Shown here: one piece after another, positions 2,697-60,819 of the stretch
How positions within the stretch are numbered: the stretch's first letter is position 1
Layout: each line of letters begins with the position of its first letter
DNA from: Eledone cirrhosa
Lineage: Eukaryota
Reading direction: 5' to 3'
Assembly: GCA_964016885.1 (NCBI GenBank)
Contig: OZ024746.1
Location: forward strand, 54,064,001-54,128,000
DNA length: 64,000 nt
The notes under the pieces: generated by a model
Told to the model about the DNA's origin: nothing
The model's input: only the letters and a program-made list of their open reading frames with translations
The model's database searches: none
Position numbers and translations under genes: made by a program

Positions 2697-2783
<87 letters not shown>

Positions 2784-2940
2784 TATGTATAGTAAGTATA
2801 TATATGTAAGTAACAGCCGTACTAAGAGTGAGAAATGAAATTTCGTTTCACTTTTTCCGTTTATATATATATATATATATATATAAATTAATGTATATAT
2901 AAATATATATATATATATATATAAATTAATGTATATATAA

Positions 2941-2997
<57 letters not shown>

Positions 2998-3262
2998 AAT
3001 TAATGTATATATATATATATATAAATTAATGTATATATATATATATATACATTTAAGTATGTATGTATACGTACATACATATATGTATACAGACGTACAG
3101 TAGTATGTATATATATATATACATACATGCAGACATATATATGTATGTACGGATTCACCGAACATTTATTATAATGCTCGGTGTGTTTGTAAACAAACAT
3201 CCAGTATTAAGCCGTAGTGTCTAGCAACCACCGTTGCTCGTTTGTTCAACACTGACAAAGGA

Positions 3263-3305
3263 ACGCTGTACTAGTTTCAAACTTATTAGCTATCGTCAGC
3301 AACGT
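3263..3305 (-). ncRNA. Type I hammerhead ribozyme (family B)
   Basis: Minus strand: ACGTTG-CTGACGA-TAGCT aata AGTTT-GAAA-CTAG-TA-CAGCGT; stem I pairs, ACTAGT palindromic stem III, GUA site. Confidence 0.8.
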
Positions 3306-3797
3306 ATACCTTCCTGCCAGATGATTGACCGTCCGAAAGCATATACTTTCCTTATGCATATTAACGGCTGAGTAGCCCAATTTGCATATCGAGTAGGTTA
3401 ATCGGCCGGGTGCACCGAAAACGATAAACGGAACAAATGAAACGAAATTTCATTTCCCACTCTTAGTACGGCTGTAACTTAAATATAAGTATGTATGTAT
3501 ACGTACATACATATATGTATGCAGACGTACATTAGTATGTATATATATATATATACATACATGCACACATATATATATGTACGTATGGATTCACCGACCA
3601 TTTATTATAATGCTCGGTGTGTTTATAGCTTATTAGCTATCGTCAGCAAAACGAATTTCGTTTCATTTTTTCCGTGTATCATTTTCGGTGTACCCTGCCG
3701 ATTAATCCACTCGATATGCAAATTGGGCTACTCAGCTGTTAATATGCATAAGGAAAGTATATGCTTTCGGACGTTCAATCATCTGGCAGGGAGGTAT

Positions 3798-3840
3798 ACG
3801 TTGCTGAAGATAGCTAATAAGCTTGAAACTAGTACAGCGT
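3798..3840 (+). ncRNA. Type I hammerhead ribozyme (family B)
   Basis: ACGTTG-CTGAAGA-TAGCT aata AGCTT-GAAA-CTAG-TA-CAGCGT. Confidence 0.8.
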
Positions 3841-4110
3841 TCCTTTGTCAGTGTTGAACAAACGAGCAACGGTGGTTGCTTGACACTACGGCTTAATACG
3901 GGATGTTTGGTTACAAACACACCGAGCATTATAATAAATGTTCGGTGAATCCATACGTACATATATATATGTGTGCATGTATGTATATATATATACATAC
4001 TACTGTACGTCTGTATACATATATGTATGTACGTATACATACATAGTTATATTTAATTAACAGCCGTACTAAGAGTGGGAAATGAAATTTCGTTTCAATT
4101 TTTCCGTTTA

Positions 4111-4131
4111 TATATATATATATATACATTA

Positions 4132-6793: not shown

Positions 6794-7500
6794 CTATGAA
6801 TTAGGGAGCTGCGCAAATCCAAGTTCAGTCATACTTTGGTCCAAGCGGGTTGGTATATAACCCGTAGCTCCAATAATGATGGGTATGAAGCTAAAGGTGT
6901 ATCTTGGATACTGGATTTGTAAACTCCTCATCAATGGTCCGTAGATGTCCTCCTTCTCCTGTATTTTTCTGACAACGTTTACATCAAGTGGGCAGCTGAT
7001 CTCCACAACAGAACACGTTTTCAATGTCTGGTCCCAAAAAACAATATCAAGCCGGTTGTGCTTTAATTTGGTGGCAGTTTTTATTTTCAGGTTCCACCAG
7101 TATTCCTTAGTGCCATCTGTCTCAATATATTCTTCCTCGTTAGTCGTTAATTTTGTTTTCCGAAGTGCGTTCCAGATGGTTCTAGCTATCCCATCGTGTC
7201 TCATGGGGAGGTAAGTAGCGAGATGACATTCTTTCGCAGCTGGCAACAATGTGGCTTACATCCTCGATCTTTGTTTTACATAGCCTACATTTATTGTCAG
7301 CTGCTGGCCCTCCTCTTTTGTGCAGCAGATATTTGGTAGGGAGTTCTTGTTCCTGTATTGCATAGAGATATCCCTCAAGGTGTGATGTCATAAACTTGTC
7401 GGAACTCCATGCCAGGCTTTTTGAGTGGTTTATCCCCTCTATGGTCTGTGTTTTACGCCTCAAGTATCCATGCACAACTTTTTCTGTAAATTGGTAAATT
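6794..7500 (-). pseudogene. 3' fragment of an RLE-type non-LTR retrotransposon (R4/Dong-like): zinc finger plus restriction-like endonuclease
   Basis: Two frameshifted ORFs: CRLC..EDVSHIVASC, RHD, WWN..IKT..KHNRLDIVFWD, VVEISCP, PIIIGATG. Next to (TATG)n. Confidence 0.8.
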
Positions 7501-10001: not shown

Positions 10002-13000
10002 ATGGCCAATATAAGAGTTGGGTGTGTGAATGTACGCGGCCTGGGGATGCCCTGGAAACAGGGCAAACACTTAAACAACCTCAGGTCGCACAATATGGAT
10101 GTAGTAGCCATTTGCGTGTCCAGGATCCACAGAGAGTGACAGCTGGCCCCCATCTTCGATGACTTTGAGATCTACGCATATCTCTGTCAGCCGGGGGGTG
10201 GGGGCGGGGTTGCCGTTTTGCTGCGGAAACACCTGGGCTTCGTAACACAGACGGTACATCTGGACCCGGAGGGTCGACTGGTGGTCCTAGACGTTGACAG
10301 TAGTGAAGGTGGAGCCTTCAGGCTGGTGGTCGCATATGCCCCATCCGGGACACTGCGGCCAGACTTCTTCAAACGTCTAGAGACTTTTCTGGGAACGTCC
10401 CGCTCCTTGCTTTTATTGGGGGACTGGAATGGATTCCTAGATGTACATTGGGACTATGTGGGAGCATGTCCCGATAAAGGGGGGTGTAACATCCTCAAAC
10501 AGTTAATCGGCCGATTTGACCTGGCCGATAGATATCGACTAGATTTTCCGACTGTGCCACTGTGGACGTGGACTAATCACAGCGGAGCATCTAGATCGTA
10601 CCTAGATAGGGTTCTAGTTAGAAATAAGGATATGGACATGTTAAGCTGTCCACATGTTCATGGTTTCCTATTCAGATCACAAACTAGTGACCTGCATAGT
10701 CAACCTTGATAGAACCCATAGACAAGGACCCGGCTACTGGAAGCTGAACTTGTCGTTACCAGCATGCAAAGCCTACAGTATACGGATTAGCACTTTAGTT
10801 AAACAGCACTTGACAGGGGCCATTGTCAACAACAGATGGTGGTACTCTCTCAAGAGGGCAGTTAGATTAGACTCGTTAGTTTTTAGTAAAGAATTAGCGT
10901 TAGATAGAAATAGAACCGAGAAAGAACTGGTAGATAAAGTAGAAGAGGCAATTAGAAGTGGAAACGTAGCCAGCGTGCTAGCAACGAGAACGGCCTTGGA
11001 CCAGTTCTTCGACGCAAAGCATGAGGGCTGCGTTGTCAGAAGCAAAATACGGGCTCTGAGAAATGAGGGAGCCAAAACTGTTAGCTGGGCGCGAGTGACG
11101 GAGGCAAAAAGTGGCAACAAGTCCACGATTCGGTCTTTGAGGGACCAAAACGGACGCGTGATACATGAGCCGAAGCAGATGTGTGCGGCCTTTCGGCGGC
11201 ACTTTGCTCAGCTGTTCTGGTAGGGCGGCGCGCCGGGAGGGGCTATGGATTTCGGTCCATACCTTGACGGCCTACCGCGACTCTCGGACAGCGAGGCAAC
11301 GTTCTGCGAAAGGCCGATTTCAGCCGCTGAGATAGGAGACGCGTTGAGCCAATGCGGCAAACGCAAATCTCCAGGTCTCGACGGTCTACCCTACTAATTT
11401 TACGTAGCAATGCCGGACTTATTCTCCGGTCTCCTGGAAGCGGTCTACTGCAACTGGCAACAGAACGGGAGAATTCCCAGTTCTGTGACCGGGGGCGTAG
11501 TCACACTAGTCAGGAAGGACGAGAATAAGGGGGATGACATAGGCAACTTCCGGCCCATAACTCTGCAAAATAGAGTTACAGATTTTCGCCAAGGTGTTGG
11601 CAAAGAGGCTGGCGCTTGTCGTCGAGAACCTGGTGAGAGAAGCGCAGACATGCGCAATCCCGACCAGGTCCATACACGACAAACTCCACCTCATGCGATA
11701 CATCATAGAGAGGGTAGGATGTAAACCCGGCTTCGGTGGGGCCCTGATCAACTTGGATCAGTCTAAGGCTTTCGATAGGGTTGACCATCGTTATCTGGAT
11801 GCGGTGCTCGAGGCGGCAGGCTTCGGACCCGTGTTCAGGGGCTGGATTGCTGCAATGCATAATAGCAACATCTGCTCAAGGGGTAAGGTGAACGGCTACC
11901 TCTCGGAGCCGTTCCGTATCACGCGATCCATTCGACAGGGATGCCCTCTCTCCTCTCTTCTGTACGTATTGACTCTCGAGCCACTACTGCGGAAGTTGGA
12001 GCTATTGCAGGGCATCCCTCTGGAACCGGGACTGCGGAAAGCGGCGTCGGCCTACGCCGACGACGTGACAGTAATGGTGTCGAGCGCCTCGCAAATCGAG
12101 GAGGTCGGCACCTTACTGAAGGAATACGAAAGGTTCACAGGAGCGAAGCTGAACCGGGACAAGTCCATCGGTTTACAACTCGGAACGTGGAGACGCAGAC
12201 CGATGCCTTCTGATGGCGTCGTCGGACGCTGGACGGAAGGACCAGTAAAGCTGTCGGGGTCTGGTTTGGTCGGACCTCCAGGTGGAGAAGAACTGGAACG
12301 AGGTGTCGGCCAAGGTGTTTGCACTCACCCAGAAGTGGGCCGAGTGCAAACTATCATTGAAAGGTCGAGCGGAGGTCGAGAACACTTTTATAGCGTCCGC
12401 CATCTACTACCGCTTGACCGTCGTGCCTTGTCCAGCCAAAACGCTCGCCAAATGGAGCGCGCGCTCTTCCAATTCTTTTGAAAGAGGCGGGCTCCTTTGG
12501 TGAGAAGATCCATCTGCTGCCAACGCCCTTCCAACGGAGGGCTGGGGATGCCGTAGCTGACGATGCGCAAACACGCGCTCAGGCTGTGGCATCTCTACGT
12601 ATTCCTCACCGGACAACCGGTGTGGGCCCCGTTCGTGAGGCGAGCCTTCCCACGACTCGTCTCGCTGACCGAGCTGCAGTCCTGGGTCAAGCAAAGAGCG
12701 AGGAAAATGGGCGACTGGCACATCGAATGTGCTCAGGCGCTCACAGCCCTCTGGCAGGCGGACCCGGCGATCAGTGGGGACTCTACTTCGTCATTCTATA
12801 GAGGGTTGATCCGCAGCAAGTGCCACGACATGCTCGGTGAAACTCTGGGCGTAGAGGAAGACGAACAGGCCAGTCTATTCGGTAGGACCTTCCGCCCGGG
12901 ACCGATGGACAACTTCCAAAAGTCCCTGGCCTGGCAGTGCTACCGAGGAGCTCTACCAGTTCGAGACAAGCTCTACAGACATGGGCGCCCGGACAGGGAC

Positions 13001-13430
13001 CCTGCAAAAAAGATCTGTCCGAGGTGCGTACGAGACGAAGAAACCGTCGCGCACGCATTCATACACTGCCCGGGCGTCACCGACCTGTGGGGCTATGTGG
13101 AACGACTATTGTCGCGGGTGGGACCAATGCAGTTGACCACCGAATCCATTGTCATGATCAAAACGCCACCCTCCTTCAAAAACGAAGGAGAGGCAGTTTT
13201 CCTTTGTTTGATAGCTATGGCGAAAGAGGTATGGTGGACAAGGTTTGAAAGGGCTGAGGTCAGACACCTTTCTCTCCGGCCAACAACTGGTTCTTTTTTT
13301 CAAATACCACTTTGGAAGAAGAATCAGGATGGAGAGAGAGGTGCTGTACCCCAGCAAGTTTTATGAAAGGTGGGTGAAAGTGGCGAGAATGGCCCGAGTG
13401 AATGGGCCTTCTCTCTATATAAGCCTGTAG
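10002..13430 (+). pseudogene. Tx1 ORF2: APE endonuclease, reverse transcriptase and C-terminal zinc finger, with several stops and frameshifts
   Basis: MANIRVGCVNVRGL, GGVAVL, YAP, LGDWN, YLDRV, SDH (APE); KSPGLDG, FRPITL, DQSKAFDRVDH, RQGCPLS, YADD (RT); CPRC..ETVAHAFIHC. Confidence 0.92.
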
Positions 13431-16309: not shown

Positions 16310-17099
16310 CAATGTGGTACAAAAATACGAAGGGCAAAAGATGAGAAAAGGAGCAATACAAAACAAACAAAAAAAAGGTAATGTTCTATCCGGTGTATTT
16401 CAAAATGATATTTCAGAGCTAATACCCTCTTTTCAGATGCAAAGTTCAAACAATCCAAGACGAAACAAACGAGCGATCAGAGATTTCGTCCTTAACTACT
16501 CCGTGTTTGAAAGACACCTGCGCATGCGCAGGGTTTCTACAGTAACCATTCTATTTCGTACCTATTATTTATCTCTGGTTTTATTCAGCTGATGAAAATG
16601 GCTTACTTAATCCTTAAATTTCCAATATTCTTTGCTGTCGCCTCCATGGTAAACTCAATTACTTAGTTGCGGAATCTGCCATGATGTTTGTATAACGGAA
16701 GCGGCTCCTTGATCCGTATTTCTTGATCCGTATATGTAGCCTACTTATGGTACTTCCGATGTATGAGGACCTACATATTTGGCAGGTGATCTTATAGAGT
16801 ACATTACTGCATTGTTGAAAGGACAATTAGAGAGTGTGCATATGATGTTGTATGCAGGTTGGTGCTAGTAGCGATCCCGTGCATGCGCGTGCGTTTTGCA
16901 AACACATAGACAGGTTAGGTAAGAAAATTCTGATCGGTCGTTTGATTTGTCTTGGACTGTGTCTTGTTTCAACTTCGCATCTGAAAAGAGGGTATGGGCC
17001 CTGAAATATCATGGTAAAATATACTGGGTAAAACATTTCTTTGTTTTGTTTTGTTTTATTTGTTATCATTTTCCCTTCGTATTTTTTCTACCACATTGT
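16309..17099. mobile_element. MITE-like element with ~220-bp imperfect terminal inverted repeats
   Basis: Ends ACAATGTGGTA...TACCACATTGT; 16309-16535 is an inverted match to 16875-17099 (both translate FASEKRV on opposite strands). Confidence 0.7.
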
Positions 17100-28395: not shown

Positions 28396-31300
28396 ATAAA
28401 AACAAATAACGAAACGAAATTAAATTTCGTTTCGTTTGTAACTCACTTTTGTATGACTGACGCTTAAACAATTAAGTTAAAGATGTACATCCATATATGT
28501 ATACTGAAATACTAGTATGTATATGAATACACACACGTATACATATGTAGATGTACCAAGTTTTTTTTCACTGGTCACTTTACTGTGAGTGGCCAGCTAT
28601 TCTGTATGTAAACACACAGACAAACCGGTTTTTAGAGTCATACTGGTTTTTGAGGAAACACCTTTCCTCTATTCTCCAGAAAGCCAGACAAGGAATATTG
28701 AACTAGTTTCGTTGTTGTTACAACTCATCAGCAATATTTACCTATCTTCCGGCCTCTCTAGAGAATCGTAAAAGCACATATCGTTATATGCTTTTTCTAT
28801 GAAAATTAGTAGTGGGCAGACTAATCCGCACAGAGTGTGAGTAAGTACCGGTTCAACGGAGACGATAAAAACAAATAACGAAACGAAATTAAATTTCGTT
28901 TCGTTTGTAACTCACTTTTGTATGACTGACGCTTAAACAATTAAGTTAAAGATGTACATCCATATATGTATACTGAAATACTAGTATGTATATGAATACA
29001 CACACGTATACATATGTAGATGTACCAAGTTTTTTTCACTGGTCACTTTACTGTGAGTGGCCAGCTATTCTGTATGTAAACACACAGACAAACCGGTTTT
29101 TAGAGTCATACTGGTTTTTGAGGAAACACCTTTCCTCTATTCTCCAGAAAGCCAGACAAGGAATATTGAACTAGTTTCGTTGTTGTTACAACTCATCAGC
29201 AATATTTACCTATCTTCCGGCCTCTCTAGAGAATCGTAAAAGCACATATCGTTATATGCTTTTTCTATGAAAATTAGTAGTGGGCAGACTAATCCGCACA
29301 GAGTGTGAGTAAGTACCGGTTCAACGGAGACGATAAAAACAAATAACGAAACGAAATTAAATTTCGTTTCGTTTGTAACTCACTTTTGTATGACTGACGC
29401 TTAAACAATTAAGTTAAAGATGTACATCCATATATGTATACTGAAATACTAGTATGTATATGAATACACACACGTATACATATGTAGATGTACCAAGTTT
29501 TTTTCACTGGTCACTTTACTGTGAGTGGCCAGCTATTCTGTATGTAAACACACAGACAAACCGGTTTTTAGAGTCATACTGGTTTTTGAGGAAACACCTT
29601 TCCTCTATTCTCCAGAAAGCCAGACAAGGAATATTGAACTAGTTTCGTTGTTGTTACAACTCATCAGCAATATTTACCTATCTTCCGGCCTCTCTAGAGA
29701 ATCGTAAAAGCACATATCGTTATATGCTTTTTCTATGAAAATTAGTAGTGGGCAGACTAATCCGCACAGAGTGTGAGTAAGTACCGGTTCAACGGAGACG
29801 ATAAAAACAAATAACGAAACGAAATTAAATTTCGTTTCGTTTGTAACTCACTTTTGTATGACTGACGCTTAAACAATTAAGTTAAAGATGTACATCCATA
29901 TATGTATACTGAAATACTAGTATGTATATGAATACACACACGTATACATATGTAGATGTACCAAGTTTTTTTCACTGGTCACTTTACTGTGAGTGGCCAG
30001 CTATTCTGTATGTAAACACACAGACAAACCGGTTTTTAGAGTCATACTGGTTTTTGAGGAAACACCTTTCCTCTATTCTCCAGAAAGCCAGACAAGGAAT
30101 ATTGAACTAGTTTCGTTGTTGTTACAACTCATCAGCAATATTTACCTATCTTCCGGCCTCTCTAGAGAATCGTAAAAGCACATATCGTTATATGCTTTTT
30201 CTATGAAAATTAGTAGTGGGCAGACTAATCCGCACAGAGTGTGAGTAAGTACCGGTTCAACGGAGACGATAAAAACAAATAACGAAACGAAATTAAATTT
30301 CGTTTCGTTTGTAACTCACTTTTGTATGACTGACGCTTAAACAATTAAGTTAAAGATGTACATCCATATATGTATACTGAAATACTAGTATGTATATGAA
30401 TACACACACGTATACATATGTAGATGTACCAAGTTTTTTTCACTGGTCACTTTACTGTGAGTGGCCAGCTATTCTGTATGTAAACACACAGACAAACCGG
30501 TTTTTAGAGTCATACTGGTTTTTGAGGAAACACCTTTCCTCTATTCTCCAGAAAGCCAGACAAGGAATATTGAACTAGTTTCGTTGTTGTTACAACTCAT
30601 CAGCAATATTTACCTATCTTCCGGCCTCTCTAGAGAATCGTAAAAGCACATATCGTTATATGCTTTTTCTATGAAAATTAGTAGTGGGCAGACTAATCCG
30701 CACAGAGTGTGAGTAAGTACCGGTTCAACGGAGACGATAAAAACAAATAACGAAACGAAATTAAATTTCGTTTCGTTTGTAACTCACTTTTGTATGACTG
30801 ACGCTTAAACAATTAAGTTAAAGATGTACATCCATATATGTATACTGAAATACTAGTATGTATATGAATACACACACGTATACATATGTAGATGTACCAA
30901 GTTTTTTTCACTGGTCACTTTACTGTGAGTGGCCAGCTATTCTGTATGTAAACACACAGACAAACCGGTTTTTAGAGTCATACTGGTTTTTGAGGAAACA
31001 CCTTTCCTCTATTCTCCAGAAAGCCAGACAAGGAATATTGAACTAGTTTCGTTGTTGTTACAACTCATCAGCAATATTTACCTATCTTCCGGCCTCTCTA
31101 GAGAATCGTAAAAGCACATATCGTTATATGCTTTTTCTATGAAAATTAGTAGTGGGCAGACTAATCCGCACAGAGTGTGAGTAAGTACCGGTTCAACGGA
31201 GACGATAAAAACAAATAACGAAACGAAATTAAATTTCGTTTCGTTTGTAACTCACTTTTGTATGACTGACGCTTAAACAATTAAGTTAAAGATGTACATC

Positions 31301-32516
31301 CATATATGTATACTGAAATACTAGTATGTATATGAATACACACACGTATACATATGTAGATGTACCAAGTTTTTTTCACTGGTCACTTTACTGTGAGTGG
31401 CCAGCTATTCTGTATGTAAACACACAGACAAACCGGTTTTTAGAGTCATACTGGTTTTTGAGGAAACACCTTTCCTCTATTCTCCAGAAAGCCAGACAAG
31501 GAATATTGAACTAGTTTCGTTGTTGTTACAACTCATCAGCAATATTTACCTATCTTCCGGCCTCTCTAGAGAATCGTAAAAGCACATATCGTTATATGCT
31601 TTTTCTATGAAAATTAGTAGTGGGCAGACTAATCCGCACAGAGTGTGAGTAAGTACCGGTTCAACGGAGACGATAAAAACAAATAACGAAACGAAATTAA
31701 ATTTCGTTTCGTTTGTAACTCACTTTTGTATGACTGACGCTTAAACAATTAAGTTAAAGATGTACATCCATATATGTATACTGAAATACTAGTATGTATA
31801 TGAATACACACACGTATACATATGTAGATGTACCAAGTTTTTTTTCACTGGTCACTTTACTGTGAGTGGCCAGCTATTCTGTATGTAAACACACAGACAA
31901 ACCGGTTTTTAGAGTCATACTGGTTTTTGAGGAAACACCTTTCCTCTATTCTCCAGAAAGCCAGACAAGGAATATTGAACTAGTTTCGTTGTTGTTACAA
32001 CTCATCAGCAATATTTACCTATCTTCCGGCCTCTCTAGAGAATCGTAAAAGCACATATCGTTATATGCTTTTTCTATGAAAATTAGTAGTGGGCAGACTA
32101 ATCCGCACAGAGTGTGAGTAAGTACCGGTTCAACGGAGACGATAAAAACAAATAACGAAACGAAATTAAATTTCGTTTCGTTTGTAACTCACTTTTGTAT
32201 GACTGACGCTTAAACAATTAAGTTAAAGATGTACATCCATATATGTATACTGAAATACTAGTATGTATATGAATACACACACGTATACATATGTAGATGT
32301 ACCAAGTTTTTTTCACTGGTCACTTTACTGTGAGTGGCCAGCTATTCTGTATGTAAACACACAGACAAACCGGTTTTTAGAGTCATACTGGTTTTTGAGG
32401 AAACACCTTTCCTCTATTCTCCAGAAAGCCAGACAAGGAATATTGAACTAGTTTCGTTGTTGTTACAACTCATCAGCAATATTTACCTATCTTCCGGCCT
32501 CTCTAGAGAATCGTAA
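28396..32516 (-). repeat. 468-bp x ~8.8 tandem array, one type I hammerhead per unit (retrozyme-like family A)
   Basis: ORF track repeats every 468 bp. The only differences I noticed are one extra T in a poly-T run in units 1 and 8. HHRs start at 28694, 29162, 29630, 30098, 30566, 31034, 31502, 31971 and 32439 (45 nt each). Confidence 0.95.
28694..28738 (-). ncRNA. Type I hammerhead ribozyme (family A, first of 9 identical copies)
   Basis: Minus strand: AATATTG-CTGATGA-GTTGT aaca ACAAC-GAAA-CTAG-TT-CAATATT; 7-bp stem I, 5-bp stem II, ACTAGT palindromic stem III, GUU triplet; predicted cut between 28701 and 28700. Confidence 0.88.
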
Positions 32517-42590: not shown

Positions 42591-43005
42591 TACAGCTAGT
42601 ATGAGAAGTGCCTGTTCAAAGAGCAGACACAGCTACCACTACTAGTCTATAAATTCCTGGATAGACATCTTAAATATTCTTCGATGTTACCGGACAAGCT
42701 CATTCAGATGATTCGTTGCCAAATCCAGGATTGCTTTGCAATTTACTTTTAGGTTATATACTTATTTATTCAACCGCTACAGCTTAGCATCGGGGAAAAC
42801 ACGTTGCAATGGATATATCAATAATTGTTTGATATTAATTTTATTAATTTTGTTGATAACCCCAATCGCTTTATTCAATTATTGCCATACTACTACTAAA
42901 TCTGAATGCGTATTCTCTGATTCTGATATTTACCTCAATTATCATTGAGCAAGATAGTGAGTGGCATGGTGGTGCTCTGCCCTAAGTGTTCAAAGCTTTG
43001 AATGG

Positions 43006-43600
43006 AAAACGATAAACGGAAAAAATGAAACGAAATTTCATTTCCCACTCTTAGTACGGCTGTTACTTAAATATAAGTATGTACACGTACATACATATAT
43101 GTATACAGACGTACAGTAGTATGTATATATATATATATAAATACATGCACACATATATATATGTACGTATGGATTCACCGAACATTTATTATAATGCTCG
43201 GTGTGTTTGTAAACAAACATCCCGTATCAAGCCGTAGTGTCTAGCAACCATCGTTGCACTGACATCGTTGCACTGACAAATGAACTGACAAATGAACGTT
43301 GTAGTAGTTTCAAGCTTATTAGCTATCGTCAGCAACGTATACCTTCCTGCCAGTTTGTTGAACATCTGAAAGTATATACTTTCCTTATGCATATTAACGG
43401 CTGAGTAGCCCAATTTGCATATCGAGTGGGTTAATCGGCCGGGTGCACCGAAAACGATAAACGGAAAAAATAAAACGAAATTTCATTTCCCACTCTTAGT
43501 ACGGCTGTTACTTAAATATAAGTATGTACACGTACATACATATATGTATACAGACGTACAGTAGTATGTATATATATATACATACATGCACACATATATA
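43006..43600 (-). repeat. Family B repeat, ~1.3 units, HHR at 43296-43338 (stem III mutated to ACTACT)
   Basis: ACGTTG-CTGACGA-TAGCTaataAGCTT-GAAA-CTAC-TA-CAACGT. Confidence 0.85.
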
Positions 43601-43604
43601 TAGT

Positions 43605-44965: not shown

Positions 44966-45314
44966 TTATTTTATTTTATATATATATATATCGATCCCGT
45001 AAGGATGAAAGGTAAAGTTAACCTCGGCGGGATTTGAACATAGACCATAAAGGGCCGTAACTCTTTGCTGCATGGCATGGCGTCCGACCCTATATTCGAT
45101 TCGTTTGCAATTATGAAAACAAGCCTCATTTTTAAAGCCATGTCAGTATCTGATATGCAAATCTGGCTGATCAGTGGATCTGCTAATATGCAGATCTCAC
45201 TGATCAGTCAGTCTGCTAATATACAAATCAGGCCGATCAGTCACTGTATATTTTAGAAAATAGCATATATTTTCACTAGCTCTGACAGTTGGCATGTGAA
45301 TATATATATTCATG

Positions 45315-46842: not shown

Positions 46843-48456
46843 ATGGTGGTGGAGTTAGCATGGTGGTGGTGAGGGTTAGCACATTGGTGGTGGTGGTGGT
46901 GGTGAGTTTAGCATAGTAGTGGTGGTGGTGGTGATAAGGTTAGCACAGTGGTGGCGGTGGTGCGGGTTAGCACAGTGGTGGTGGTGGTGGTGATAAGGTT
47001 AGCACAGTGGTGGCGGTGGTGCGGGTTAGCACATTGGTGGTGGTGGTGGTGAGTTTAGCATAGTAGTGGTGGTGGTGGTGATAAGGTTAGCACAGTGGTG
47101 GCGGTGGTGCGGGTTAGCACAGTGGTGGTGGTGGTGGTGCGGGTTAGCACAGTGGTGGTGGTGGTGGTGATAAGGTTAGCACAGTGGTGGCGGTGGTGCG
47201 GGTTAGCACATTGGTGGTGGTGGTGGTGCGGGTTAGCACAGTGGTGGCGGTGGTGGTGGTGATGAGGTTAGCACAGTGGTGGCGGTGGTGCGGGTTAGCA
47301 CATTGGTGGTGGTGGTGGTGGTGGTGCGGGTTAGCACAGTGGTGGCGGTGGTGCGGGTTAGCACAGTGGTGGTGGTGGTGGTGGTGCGGGTTAGCACAGT
47401 GGTGGCGGTGGTGCGGGTTAGCACAGTGGTGGTGGTGGTGGTGATGAGGTTAGCACAGTGGTGGCGGTGGTGCGGGTTAGCACATTGGTGGTGGTGGTGG
47501 TGGTGGTGCGGGTTAGCACAGTGGCGGCGGTGGTGCGGGTTAGCACAGTGGTGGTGGTGGTGGTGATGCGGGTTAGCACAGTGGTGGCGGTGGTGCGGGT
47601 TAGCACATTGGTGGTGGTGGTGGTGGTGCGGGTTAGCACAGTGGTGGAGGTGGTGGTGGTGCGGGTTAGCACAGTGGTGGAGGTGGTGCGGGTTAGCACA
47701 GTGGTGGAGGTGGTGCGGGTTAGCACAGTGGTGGTGGTGGTGGTGATAAGGTTAGCACAGTGGTGGCGGTGGTGCGGGTTAGCACATTGGTGGTGCGGGT
47801 TAGCACAGTGGTGGTGGTGGTGGTGATGAGGTTAGCACAGTGGTGGCGGTGGTGCGGGTTAGCACATTGGTGGTGGTGGTGGTGGTGCGGGTTAGCACAG
47901 TGGTGGTGGTGGTGGTGATGAGGTTAGCACAGTGGTGGTGGTGCGAGTTAGCACATTGGTGGTGGTGGTGGTGATGAGGTTAGCACAGTGGTGGTGGTGG
48001 TGCGGGTTAGCACATGGTGGTGGTGGTGGTGTTAGCATAGTGGCGGTGGCGGAGGTGGTGTTGGTGAGGGTTAGCACATTGGTGTTGGTGGTAGAGTTAG
48101 CATAGTGGCGGTGGTGGTGGTGGAGGGTGGGTTAGTATAGAGGTGGTGGTGGTGAGGTCAACATAGTGGTGGTGGTGGTGGAGGTGATGTTACCATAGTG
48201 GTGGTGGTGTTGGTGGTGAGGTTAGCATAGTGGTTGTGGTGATGGTGGAGGTGAGGTTATCATAGTGGTGGTGGTGGTGGAGGTGAGGTTACCATAGTGG
48301 TGGTGGTGGTGGTGGAGGTGAGGTTACCATAGTGGTGGTGGTGTTGGTGGTGAGGTTAGCATAGTGGTGGTGGTGGTGGTAGTGGTGAGGTGAGAGTTAA
48401 CACATTGGTGGTGGTGGTGGTGGTGAGGGTTAGCACATTGGTGGTGGTGATGGTGA
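46843..48456 (+). repeat. G-rich minisatellite: (GGT)n spacers separated by GGGTTAGCACA / AGGTTAGCACA
   Basis: Roughly 50 units of ~21-39 bp, varying mostly in 3-bp steps; homogeneous centre and degenerate edges. Confidence 0.93.
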
Positions 48457-57825: not shown

Positions 57826-58244
57826 ATATGTATGCATATGCTTAAAATGTATGTATATATGTATCCATATGCTTAAAAACAACACGTATATATTTATACG
57901 TACATAAATATACATACATATGTGTGTTTTTTTAAATGGAATGAGGTACTGCGTATTATGATAATGCCATCATCTAAAGATTACCGGTTAAATACAGTGA
58001 TGAATGAAAAATACAAATTTAACAATTTCGTCAAATCTCTGCGTGTTACCATATAGCTGTATGGTAATGTCTCTAATACACAAGATTACTAAAAACATAA
58101 TGGCGCTGAATAGAACAGTGTATGCCTATCTACGGCTTGCTACTTGCTACATACAAGCTGAAACCGGTAGGCGTTGCGGTCGGGTTTAAACCTGTCTCTC
58201 TCTCTCCTTATATATATATATATATATATAAGTTGTAATATAAT

Positions 58245-58433
58245 TGTTTCTACGTTAGGCACAAGGCCAGCAAATTACCCAGTGCATTACTGGTACTTTA
58301 TTTTATCGACCCCGTAAGGATGAAAGGCAAAGTCAACCTCGGCGGGATTTGAACTCAGATCGTAAAGGGATGTAACTATGCTGGAAAGCATGGCGTCCGA
58401 CCCTCTACCGATACTGCCAATCCACACCCTATG
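58245..58433 (-). mobile_element. SINE family 1 inserted into the start of the family B array, with TSD
   Basis: AGTTGTAATATAAT duplicated at 58231-58244 and 58434-58447. Confidence 0.85.
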
Positions 58434-58999
58434 AGTTGTAATATAATGAAACGAAATTTCATTTCTCACTCTTAGTACGGCACTTACTTAAATGTAAGTA
58501 TGTATGTATACGTACATACATATATGTATACAGACGTACAGTAGCATGCATATATATATATATATATACATACAGGTACACATATATATATGTACGTATC
58601 AGTTTAGTGAACGTTTATTATAACGCTCGCTTTGTTCGTTTGTAAACAAGCGAACAGCCTGATTTATGCCATACGGTGTTAAGGCAACCACGTCACCTTT
58701 TTGTTCAACACTGACACAGGAACGATGTACTAGTTTCAAGCTTGTTAGCTATCATCAGCACCGTATACCCTTCTGCCAGATAGTTGAACGTTCGAAAGTA
58801 TATACTTTCCTTATGAAAATTAACGGCTGAGCAGCCTAATTTGCATATCGAGTGAGTTCAGTCGGCCAGGCGTACCGAAAACGATAAGTTGTAATATAAT
58901 GAAACGAAATTTCATTTCTCACTCTTACTACGGCACTTACTTAAATGTAAGTATGTATGTATACGTACATACTTATATGTATACAGACGTACAGTAGCA

Positions 59000-59081
<82 letters not shown>

Positions 59082-59461
59082 CAGGTACACATATATATAT
59101 GTACGTATCAGTTTAGCGAACGTTTATTATAACGCTCGCTTTGCCGTTTGTAAACAAGCGAACAGCCTGATTTATGCCATACGGTGTTAAGGCAACCACG
59201 TCATCTTTTTGTTCAACACTGACACAGGAACGATGTACTAGTTTCAAGCTTGTTAGCTATCATCAGCACCGTATACCCTTAACGGCTGAGCAGCCTAATT
59301 TGCATATCGAATGAGTTCAGTCGGCCAGGCGTACCGAAAACGATAAGTTGTAATATAATGAAACGAAATTTCATTTCTCACTTTTAGTACGGCACTTACT
59401 TAAATGTAAGTATGTATGTATACGTACATACATATATGTATACAGACGTACAGTAGCATGC

Positions 59462-59498
<37 letters not shown>

Positions 59499-59951
59499 CA
59501 GGTACACATATATCTATGTACGTATCAGTTTAGCGAACGTTTATTATAACGCTCGCTTTGTCCGTTTGTAAACAAGCGAACAGCCTGATTTATGTCATAC
59601 GGTGTTAAGGCAACCACGTCACCTTTTTGTTCAACACTGACACAGGAACGATGTACTAGTTTCAAGCTTGTTAGCTATCCTCAGCACCGTATACCCTTCT
59701 GCCAGATAGTTGAACGTTCGAAAGTATATACTTTCCTTATGAAAATTAACGGCTGAGCAGCCTAATTTGCATATCGAATGAGTTCAGTCGGCCAGGCGTA
59801 CCGAAAACGATAAGTTGTAATATAATGAAACGAAATTTCATTTCTCACTCTTAGTACGGCACTTATTTAAATGTAAGTATGTATGTATACGTACATTCAT
59901 ATATGTATACAGACGTACAGTAGCATGCATATATATATATATATATATATA

Positions 59952-60226
59952 TAATATAAGATCAAAAGATGGTTAAAGGAGTTCAATATATTTTATTATG
60001 CGCATTTCAAAAACAAACATCATCAAACAATAATATTTGTGTTTTCATCAGATAAAACATGATATGAAGGCTAAAAAAACACTTGTTGATAGTGCAGTTT
60101 TAAATCAACATATCATAACCATCTTTTGATCTTATATTATGCATACTCCAGTCCCACAAACTGTAGAGTGCTTCTTATCCGATATCTGCATTGCTTTATT
60201 GTACTACAATAAAACTCACCTCCTAC
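59952..60226. mobile_element. Family C element copy 4 (right arm internally deleted; HHR 59991-60057 minus) nested in the (TA)n of array unit 4
   Basis: Same arm and tail sequence as 2292-2696. Confidence 0.8.
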
Positions 60227-60305
<79 letters not shown>

Positions 60306-60819
60306 CATGTACACATATATATATGTACGTATCAGTTTAGCGAACGTTTATTATAACGCTCGCTTTGTCCGTTTGTAAACAAGCGAACAGCCTGATTTAT
60401 GCTATACGGGGTTAAGGCAACCACGTCACCTATATATATATATATATATATAATATAAAGCTGACGGCCGTATGTATGTAACAAACTTTCTGCCAAACGG
60501 CTGAACCAAATTTGCACCATAAATGTAACTTTTTCCAAGTGAGTGCATTTTTGTCTACTGAATTTTGTTAAAAGATTAAAGACATTATTTAAATATTCAC
60601 TTCTTTAAAATTTCAAATGTCAAAATTTCCAGTTATACGACATTCCTCACTTTTTCTTATGACGTCGCACAACATTCCCCTCTTTTTCTTAGCGTCTTTT
60701 TAGATATATACATAGCTATAACGTAGCGCCCTTATAATATGTCTCTGTATGTCTGGCTGTCTGCATTAGATAACGTTTTTCGAAATATTTACTTTTGCGT
60801 TCACAGATTGATTTTTTTT

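Follow-up and report, generated by a model that had tools for sequence, protein, structure and literature searches.

A putative, very abundant non-LTR retrozyme family in the genome of Eledone cirrhosa with an insertion footprint like that of Penelope-like elements

Introduction

The repeats described here are closest to two kinds of known elements, the metazoan non-LTR retrozymes and the Penelope-like elements (PLEs). According to the accessible part of a recent preprint, non-LTR retrozymes are argued to be non-autonomous derivatives of PLEs (10.64898/2026.07.22.740005). Copies of PLEs typically form partial tandems that include an inverted, 5'-truncated copy (10.1101/2021.04.23.441226), and PLE hammerheads with a palindromic stem III are described as acting in the form of dimers (PMC4209133, PMC6765202). 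For the Poseidon PLE, the available account (PMC11167929) states that AT-rich DNA is cut on both strands by the purified protein, which also extends them, that it starts internally at two adjacent sites which define the genomic tail, and that hammerhead cleavage is dispensable for insertion in vitro. Moreover, newt satellite 2 is reported to have an snRNA-type promoter (PMC2220036).

Our analysis was based on a 64,000-nucleotide stretch of Eledone cirrhosa DNA (contig OZ024746.1, positions 54,064,001 to 54,128,000), which is called the window, and on searches of the genome assembly (3.0 Gb, 1,796 contigs), the microsatellite load of which we take to be cephalopod-like. We consider it probable, at roughly 0.8, that the two repeat families A and B are non-LTR retrozymes for which a resident PLE, probably of the Neptune type, supplies the RT and the GIY-YIG endonuclease, with reverse transcription taking place into nicked (TA)n microsatellites. 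The family is undescribed in the accessible journal literature that we searched on octopus and cephalopod hammerheads, retrozymes and Penelope, which includes few subscription journals.

Anatomy of the Loci in the Window

The initial annotation had treated the whole interval 58231-60430 as family B. Its start at 58231 is indeed the true 3' terminus of a B insertion beside a (TA)n run ending at 58230, but a SINE-like repeat and an element of family C had been left unseparated within it. The insertion itself (58231-60431, minus strand), which belongs to B2, consists of three units and a 5'-truncated fourth, with (TA)n at both edges and two later insertions inside. The 14 nt of its 3' terminus (58231-58244, minus strand) are duplicated at 58434-58447 and form the 14-bp target-site duplication of the SINE-like repeat (58245-58433), which is foreign to B. 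Similar sequence occurs near 44990 and in loci L145 and L147; positions 58345-58354 on the minus strand of this repeat carry a tRNA B-box-like motif.

All of the B2 units lie on the minus strand. Unit 1 (58434-58886, 453 bp) contains a 3' hairpin that is kept in both A and B (58448-58465, minus strand) and is located between two preferred 3'-end sites, the second of which is at 58488-58503 (minus strand, unit positions about 384-399) and has a homologous site in A; the hairpin may serve as a recognition element for the RT. The type I hammerhead of this unit (58722-58764, minus strand) is composed of a 6-bp stem I, CUGAUGA, a U·U and 4-bp stem II, GAAA and a palindromic stem III, with cleavage predicted between 58728 and 58727, and the octamer ATGCAAAT, a candidate promoter element, is found at 58839-58846 (minus strand). 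Unit 2 (58887-59345) has an expanded internal TA run, a deletion of ~50 nt upstream of the ribozyme and a hammerhead at 59230-59272, while the hammerhead of unit 3 (59346-59812) is at 59648-59690 and has a private G7. Unit 4 (59813-60431) is partial, its 5' truncation at 60431 leaving it without its ribozyme, and it is split by an unrelated hammerhead element of family C that is nested in its internal (TA)n (59953-60230, minus strand, ends approximate) and has a ribozyme motif with a palindromic stem III at 59991-60057 (minus strand).

Elsewhere in the window, family A forms an array of 8.8 units of 468 bp (28397-32516, minus strand) with nine hammerheads that have the G10.1-C11.1 pair. Subfamily B1 is present as a cluster with inverted pieces (2697-4111, ends approximate), which has hammerheads at 3263-3305 (minus strand) and 3798-3840 (plus strand) and a partial one at 3621-3648, and as an insertion of about 1.3 units (43005-43602, minus strand), in the hammerhead of which (43296-43338) one stem III pair is broken.

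The window is dense in hammerhead-like sequences. A third hammerhead family, characterised by a long stem II and palindromic stem III, forms inverted pairs ~120-130 bp apart (2392/2510, 22904/23025 and 35524/35656), in addition to the copy nested once in a B unit, and is also present in loci L115 and L125. Further CUGANGA...GAAA motifs of other families were found at 117, 26400, 35133/35159, 39512, 50378, 52345, 56001 and 62787. Broken ORFs at 10140-13366 (plus strand) carry endonuclease- and RT-like motifs that presumably resemble an L1/Tx1-type LINE, and an ORF fragment at 6794-7255 (minus strand) resembles, as we assume, the restriction-like endonuclease of an R2/R4-type retrotransposon. 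A G-rich minisatellite of 27-32-bp repeats with GGTTAG words (46861-48455) is presumably telomere-like.

Homology, Subfamilies and Abundance of A and B

It had been claimed that A and B are collinear across the whole unit and homologous outside of the hammerhead, and both the end-to-end alignment and the shuffle tests agree with this. When the ribozyme with 12 nt on either side and the TA-rich block were left out, A and B2 were 68%, 63% and 77% identical in three segments (z 6.1, 4.9 and 2.9), with scores that were reached by 0, 1 and 1 of 300 dinucleotide shuffles, respectively; for A and B1, the same segments gave z values of 6.9, 2.3 and 4.5 (300 dinucleotide shuffles each). Judged by their sequences, A and B are best described as one dispersed, non-coding repeat that bears a hammerhead and has diverged into two lineages. 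More distant lineages of the ACTAGT type were limited to a few decayed motifs of 33-34 nt with no visible A or B flanks and were excluded from the members.

The hammerhead pattern had 40,333 matches in the genome compared to six for the reversed control, and hence it is not a product of chance. Five subfamilies were distinguished: A, A' (with one compensated stem II pair), B1, B2, to which the locus at 58231-60431 belongs, and B3. The mean pairwise identity was 0.97 within B2 and 0.89 within both B1 and B3, compared to 0.83-0.86 between them, and the best B2 copies, which are 98-99% identical, are spread over many contigs. Using the flank anchors alone, 23,663 copies of B1 and B2 were found genome-wide. 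A or C follows the core in 1,663 cases, and the 100 of these that were listed are mostly B3. Array size ranges from ~1 unit up to 31 head-to-tail units plus one inverted copy among the arrays listed, and locus L029 has four ribozymes. The units are 440-470 bp long with a GC content of 0.36; as circles they are predicted to be highly folded (z -5.9 to -8.4), and their antisense strand folds well too (z -4.0 and -5.3).

The octamer ATGCAAAT is found upstream of C3, at a distance of 88 nt in 46 of 49 B2, 12 of 18 B1 and 17 of 22 B3 copies and of 100 nt in 15 of 20 A copies, although the A array of the window has lost it. As proof of a promoter the octamer was rejected, since an identical run of 12 nt is expected about once per 400 nt at 65% identity; it is a lead for a candidate promoter, for which chance conservation is a plausible explanation. 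A 33-bp tandem repeat at 45153-45243 (2.8 copies) contains the octamer as well and resembles the octamer region of B. The promoter of newt satellite 2 uses an octamer.

Hammerheads: Motifs, Covariation and Core Conservation

The window contains 15 complete A/B type I hammerheads, nine in A (C3 positions 28731-32476) and six in B (C3 at 3299, 3804, 43332, 58758, 59266 and 59684), all of which are on the minus strand except the copy at 3804. At the motif level, they have the CUGANGA...GAAA...UH core, three stems and the open ends in stem I of the type I hammerhead. The stem sequences that had been quoted for the A and B copies were correct on re-reading, and the ACTAGT of stem III is kept in 14 of the 15 copies, as had been stated, the exception being ACTACT at 43332. 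The pair that closes stem II, G10.1-C11.1, is present in A, whereas this position is U·U in B1 and B2 and mostly C·A in B3. No ribozyme motif was found on the second strand of the A/B unit, and the A and B arrays had zero ORFs of at least 150 aa. An Rfam scan at the gathering score gave zero matches; below the threshold, Hammerhead_HH9 was matched weakly (17.6 bits, E 0.55), and the other E-value matches, mostly of microRNA models on TA repeats, were rejected as chance.

Of the 11 base pairs in stems I and II, seven are altered on both sides between A and B2; six of these still pair, and 10.1-11.1 has become U·U. The alignment for the covariation analysis comprised 18 variants that were hand-picked from 75 distinct sequences (134 copies) with recurrent ones favoured; 92% of its cells pair and six of its 15 pairs are doubly changed. 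Its covariation was 0.238 compared to 0.086 after shuffling (reached by none of 500 shuffles) and at most 0.094 in slid controls, while the count of six doubly changed pairs was reached by 40 of 500 shuffles. The independent events behind this covariation are few: in essence the split of A and B, a single change in A' and one stem I pair within B. Within B, G·U, U·G, A-U and U-A are all found at the third stem I pair, as is an unpaired U·U. DNA hairpins can covary too by DNA-level repair.

A and B do not differ at any of the 11 core positions or in the ACTAG of stem III, and variation at the level of the lineages is found only at tolerant places, i.e., N7, loop II, H17, the third stem I pair and 10.1/11.1. 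The initial annotation had named N7 as the only core position that varies, which does not hold in the window, where H17 is U in A and A in B and 10.1-11.1 changes from G-C to U·U. All four bases do occur at N7, but A7 and G7 are private mutations that are rare (T was found in 70 of 103 B copies, C in 30, A in two and G in one).

Among the inserted copies, the core is not invariant, contrary to what had been claimed. A lesion in the 11 invariant positions was found in 2,370 of the 23,663 B copies (10.0%), with the remaining 21,293 (90.0%) being intact, whereas 11 control positions were intact in 20,984 copies (88.7%) and had a lesion in 11.3%. The per-site loss was 0.95% for the core and 1.09% for the control. 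Core lesions are thus slightly rarer (chi-square p 4.5e-6), a comparison of non-independent copies and of position sets whose composition differs by one base. This deficit of core lesions would be the trace left if the host kept the ribozymes for a function at many loci, an explanation that we find hardly credible because the gap is so small and the core shows nearly the full control rate. Since the core is lost about as often as the control, inserted copies decay almost neutrally, with selection acting on the master lineages; the claim that the ribozyme fold is under selection is supported in that restricted sense. In one sequencing run, which may be from the assembly's own sample, 24 variant places were found in 291 bases. 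Three of them were inside the ribozyme (a stem I partner, loop II and N7) and none in the 11 core positions, where ~0.9 was expected, which is not significant.

Insertion Ends and the RNA Intermediate

The ends of the insertions were mapped in 28 B2 loci, a non-random set of best matches to one 291-nt query from which the duplicates L012 and L030 (of L011 and L010) had been dropped. Of the 55 3' ends, 22 were at the unit boundary, 22 at positions 380-400, eight in the internal TA block and three elsewhere, while for the 55 5' ends these numbers were zero, two, 11 and 42. Hence, 44 of 55 3' ends, compared to two of 55 5' ends, coincide with the two preferred sites (Fisher p 1.6e-17), which are ~58 nt apart in B and ~70 nt in A. 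No 5' end out of 55 was at the cleavage site. A TA run touches 40 of the 3' ends and 10 of the 5' ends, and some of the 3' ends that lie in TA-rich sequence may have arisen later through microsatellite-mediated deletion. In 17 of 18 inversions, both 3' ends face outward. Family A has a similar distribution, with 11 of 22 3' ends at the boundary, seven of 22 at 395-401 and 22 scattered 5' ends. Past the unit boundary (87 cases), the sequence continues with another unit in 50, with (TA)n in 26 and with other sequence in 11.

The inserts regularly span the cleavage junction and exceed one unit length, from which it follows that a circle or an uncleaved multimer, and not a linear monomer, served as template. 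Propagation through an RNA intermediate is supported by these data, with the polarity of the insertion ends being stronger evidence than the covariation. The initial annotation had concluded that the repeats replicate through RNA; an RNA intermediate agrees with this polarity, but nothing was found for RNA-to-RNA replication. Viroid-like replication of this kind, with the genomic copies as integrated snapshots, has been raised as a possibility for mussel retrozymes (PMC7229834) and PLE hammerheads (PMC4209133) in the accessible parts of these papers, and the highly structured units would suit it. We consider it highly improbable for A and B, as the ribozyme is on one strand only and there are few discrete subfamilies with 97% identity inside B2 and no quasispecies.

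Spread at the DNA level, either rolling-circle and Helitron-like or through satellite recombination, would make the hammerhead a relic whose stems covary by hairpin-templated DNA repair. Several observations are compatible with it: the unit is a chain of palindromes with a well-folding antisense strand, the core decays among the copies about as fast as the control positions, and the long local arrays probably grow through unequal exchange. The strand-specific polarity of the ends, the random 5' truncation and the outward 3' ends are, however, the footprint of retrotransposition. Additionally, stem I shows an exchange of G·U and U·G pairs, and the core and ACTAG remain identical in A and B despite flanks that are 62-77% identical, which makes this explanation very unlikely. 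A non-autonomous PLE derivative is expected to form partial tandems in which a 5'-truncated copy is inverted, and to have a pair of internal 3' ends and an AT-rich target, all of which were observed here.

Candidate PLE Partners

Genome-wide, 10,595 GIY-YIG candidates were found, of which 150 were scored. The long ORFs carry both RVT_1 and GIY-YIG, with E-values for RVT_1 of 2e-6 to 6e-16, two of four being under the curated cut-off, and they have a CX4CX2C linker of the Neptune/Nematis kind as this is defined in the accessible part of 10.1101/2021.04.23.441226. A and B therefore coexist with autonomous PLEs, as is characteristic of non-LTR retrozymes. In 16 of the 19 PLE 3' regions examined, a (TA)8 run is reached within 750 nt. 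The L113-type PLE has a minimal hammerhead with a palindromic stem III and a stem II whose base is, as in B, a U·U, and the decayed hammerhead of the L127 PLE also has a U·U at this place. In the 3' region of the Neptune-type PLE in L113 (2722-2100, minus strand), CCAAT- and TATA-like boxes lie upstream of the minimal hammerhead, and this order of promoter and ribozyme is the one proposed for A and B. In the window, a fragment at 16552-16802 (minus strand) is a match to the L120 PLE protein at its GIY-YIG end (E 2.7e-8).

No homology of A or B to autonomous PLEs was found in 40 GIY-YIG loci, and six PLE 3' UTRs gave z values of at most 2.1, both sets representing only a small fraction of the 10,595 candidates. 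An ORF with RT and GIY-YIG is absent from the units, and tblastn matches were found only in the flanks of five of the hammerhead loci searched. The units might still be pseudo-LTRs or 3'-end by-products of one unsampled autonomous PLE, left by early-aborting reverse transcription and not propagating independently. Their insertion signature is the same as that of PLEs, homology between pLTRs and retrozymes is reported for Xenopus in the accessible text of 10.64898/2026.07.22.740005, and in a few loci PLE ORF fragments are found next to A or B pieces. In L018 (3-1162) and L042 (1011-1199), truncated pieces of a PLE ORF directly adjoin B or A insertions, and these junctions are either insertions into older PLEs or template switches; in L018, the truncated ORF is faced by the 3' end of B, which points into it and so agrees with insertion into an older PLE. 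The head-to-tail multimers, including the array of 31 units among those listed and the four ribozymes of L029, have no ORF between their units, and past the boundary another unit or (TA)n follows in 76 of 87 cases. By-products of a PLE are thus unlikely, and we retain the reading of A and B as retrozymes that depend on a resident PLE.

Proposed Mechanism

Transcription, cleavage, circularisation and the nature of the mobilising protein are the parts of this reading that we infer. In the first step, transcription of a tandem master would take place, possibly driven by an octamer/TATA promoter that lies inside the unit, upstream of the ribozyme. The tandem hammerheads are then predicted to cleave as dimers via their palindromic stem III, and the monomers may circularise. 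Next, DNA synthesis would begin internally at either of two fixed AU-rich sites that lie ~235 and ~294 nt downstream of the cleavage site, on either side of the conserved hairpin, with priming in (TA)n and often on both target strands; the footprint of this step is observed, and a PLE enzyme is its presumed agent. Synthesis would continue past the cleavage junction and beyond one unit length, as is seen in the inserts, the 5' ends of which are randomly truncated or inverted. In the last step, the inserted copies would decay in the almost neutral manner observed, and the core and stems would be kept by the master lineages only. Because the Poseidon PLE inserts in vitro without hammerhead cleavage, the data do not require the cleavage step or the circle. 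Moreover, B does not have the G10.1-C11.1 pair of the PLE hammerhead consensus, and thus the activity of its ribozyme may be low.

A more specific version can be offered tentatively, although we regard it as rather doubtful. B would be a recently exploding retrozyme in which the U·U of the host's Neptune-type PLEs replaced G10.1-C11.1 as the PLE protein assists cleavage; it would have its own snRNA-type promoter and would encode both the (TA)n at which it lands and two internal sites of priming, and its circular RNA would be copied by twin target-primed synthesis. If this were true, the 40,000 insertions would be the most direct genomic proof of PLE proteins mobilising animal retrozymes.

Comparison with Known Systems

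Similar to the metazoan non-LTR retrozymes as they are described in the accessible parts of PMC7229834 and 10.64898/2026.07.22.740005, A and B are short non-coding tandems with one type I hammerhead per unit and a low GC content (under 45%), are dispersed in multiple copies as dimers to multimers, are highly folded in circular prediction, coexist with PLEs and are represented by several families per genome. Their unit of 440-470 bp is longer than the 170-400 nt given in PMC7229834 but is within the 51-972 bp of 10.64898/2026.07.22.740005. The differences are that B has U·U or C·A where these retrozymes have G10.1-C11.1, that circular RNA and cleavage, which are predicted for A and B, have been demonstrated in them, and that two fixed 3' sites and (TA)n targeting, as found in A and B, do not appear in the available text of either source. 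On these features, A and B would represent a very abundant new family within a known kind, the metazoan non-LTR retrozymes. The hammerhead of a D. willistoni PLE likely has the same U·U as B, according to machine-extracted columns of the PMC4209133 supplement, and therefore this feature is probably not new.

In comparison with the canonical EN+ PLEs and their pLTR hammerheads, as far as the accessible accounts go (PMC4209133; 10.1101/2021.04.23.441226; Poseidon PAc, PMC11167929), A and B share the short palindromic stem III, the partial tandems with an inverted 5'-truncated copy, the two internal 3' ends, the priming of both strands, the AT-rich or (TA)n target and the lack of ends at the cleavage site. 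They differ in having no ORF and in the spacing of their 3' sites, which is 58-70 nt compared to the 30-40 bp PLE tail (10.1101/2021.04.23.441226), and also in their lack of sequence homology to the six local PLE 3' UTRs tested. With newt satellite 2 and the axolotl retrozymes, as portrayed in the accessible part of PMC7229834, A and B have in common the tandem hammerhead repeats with a short stem III that act as dimers, a mode of action that is predicted for A and B. The octamer upstream of the A/B ribozyme can be likened to the promoter of newt satellite 2, the two systems being compared by description and not by sequence.

In the accessible literature, the mobilisation of animal retrozymes by PLEs has so far been argued from co-occurrence and pLTR similarity. 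Here, two families that are ~35% diverged both have the insertion footprint of PLEs, with tens of thousands of young copies and with Neptune-type elements with long ORFs in the same genome. This makes the genome a test system in which it can be tested directly which element is the partner, whether cleavage or circularisation is needed and whether a U·U hammerhead is active.
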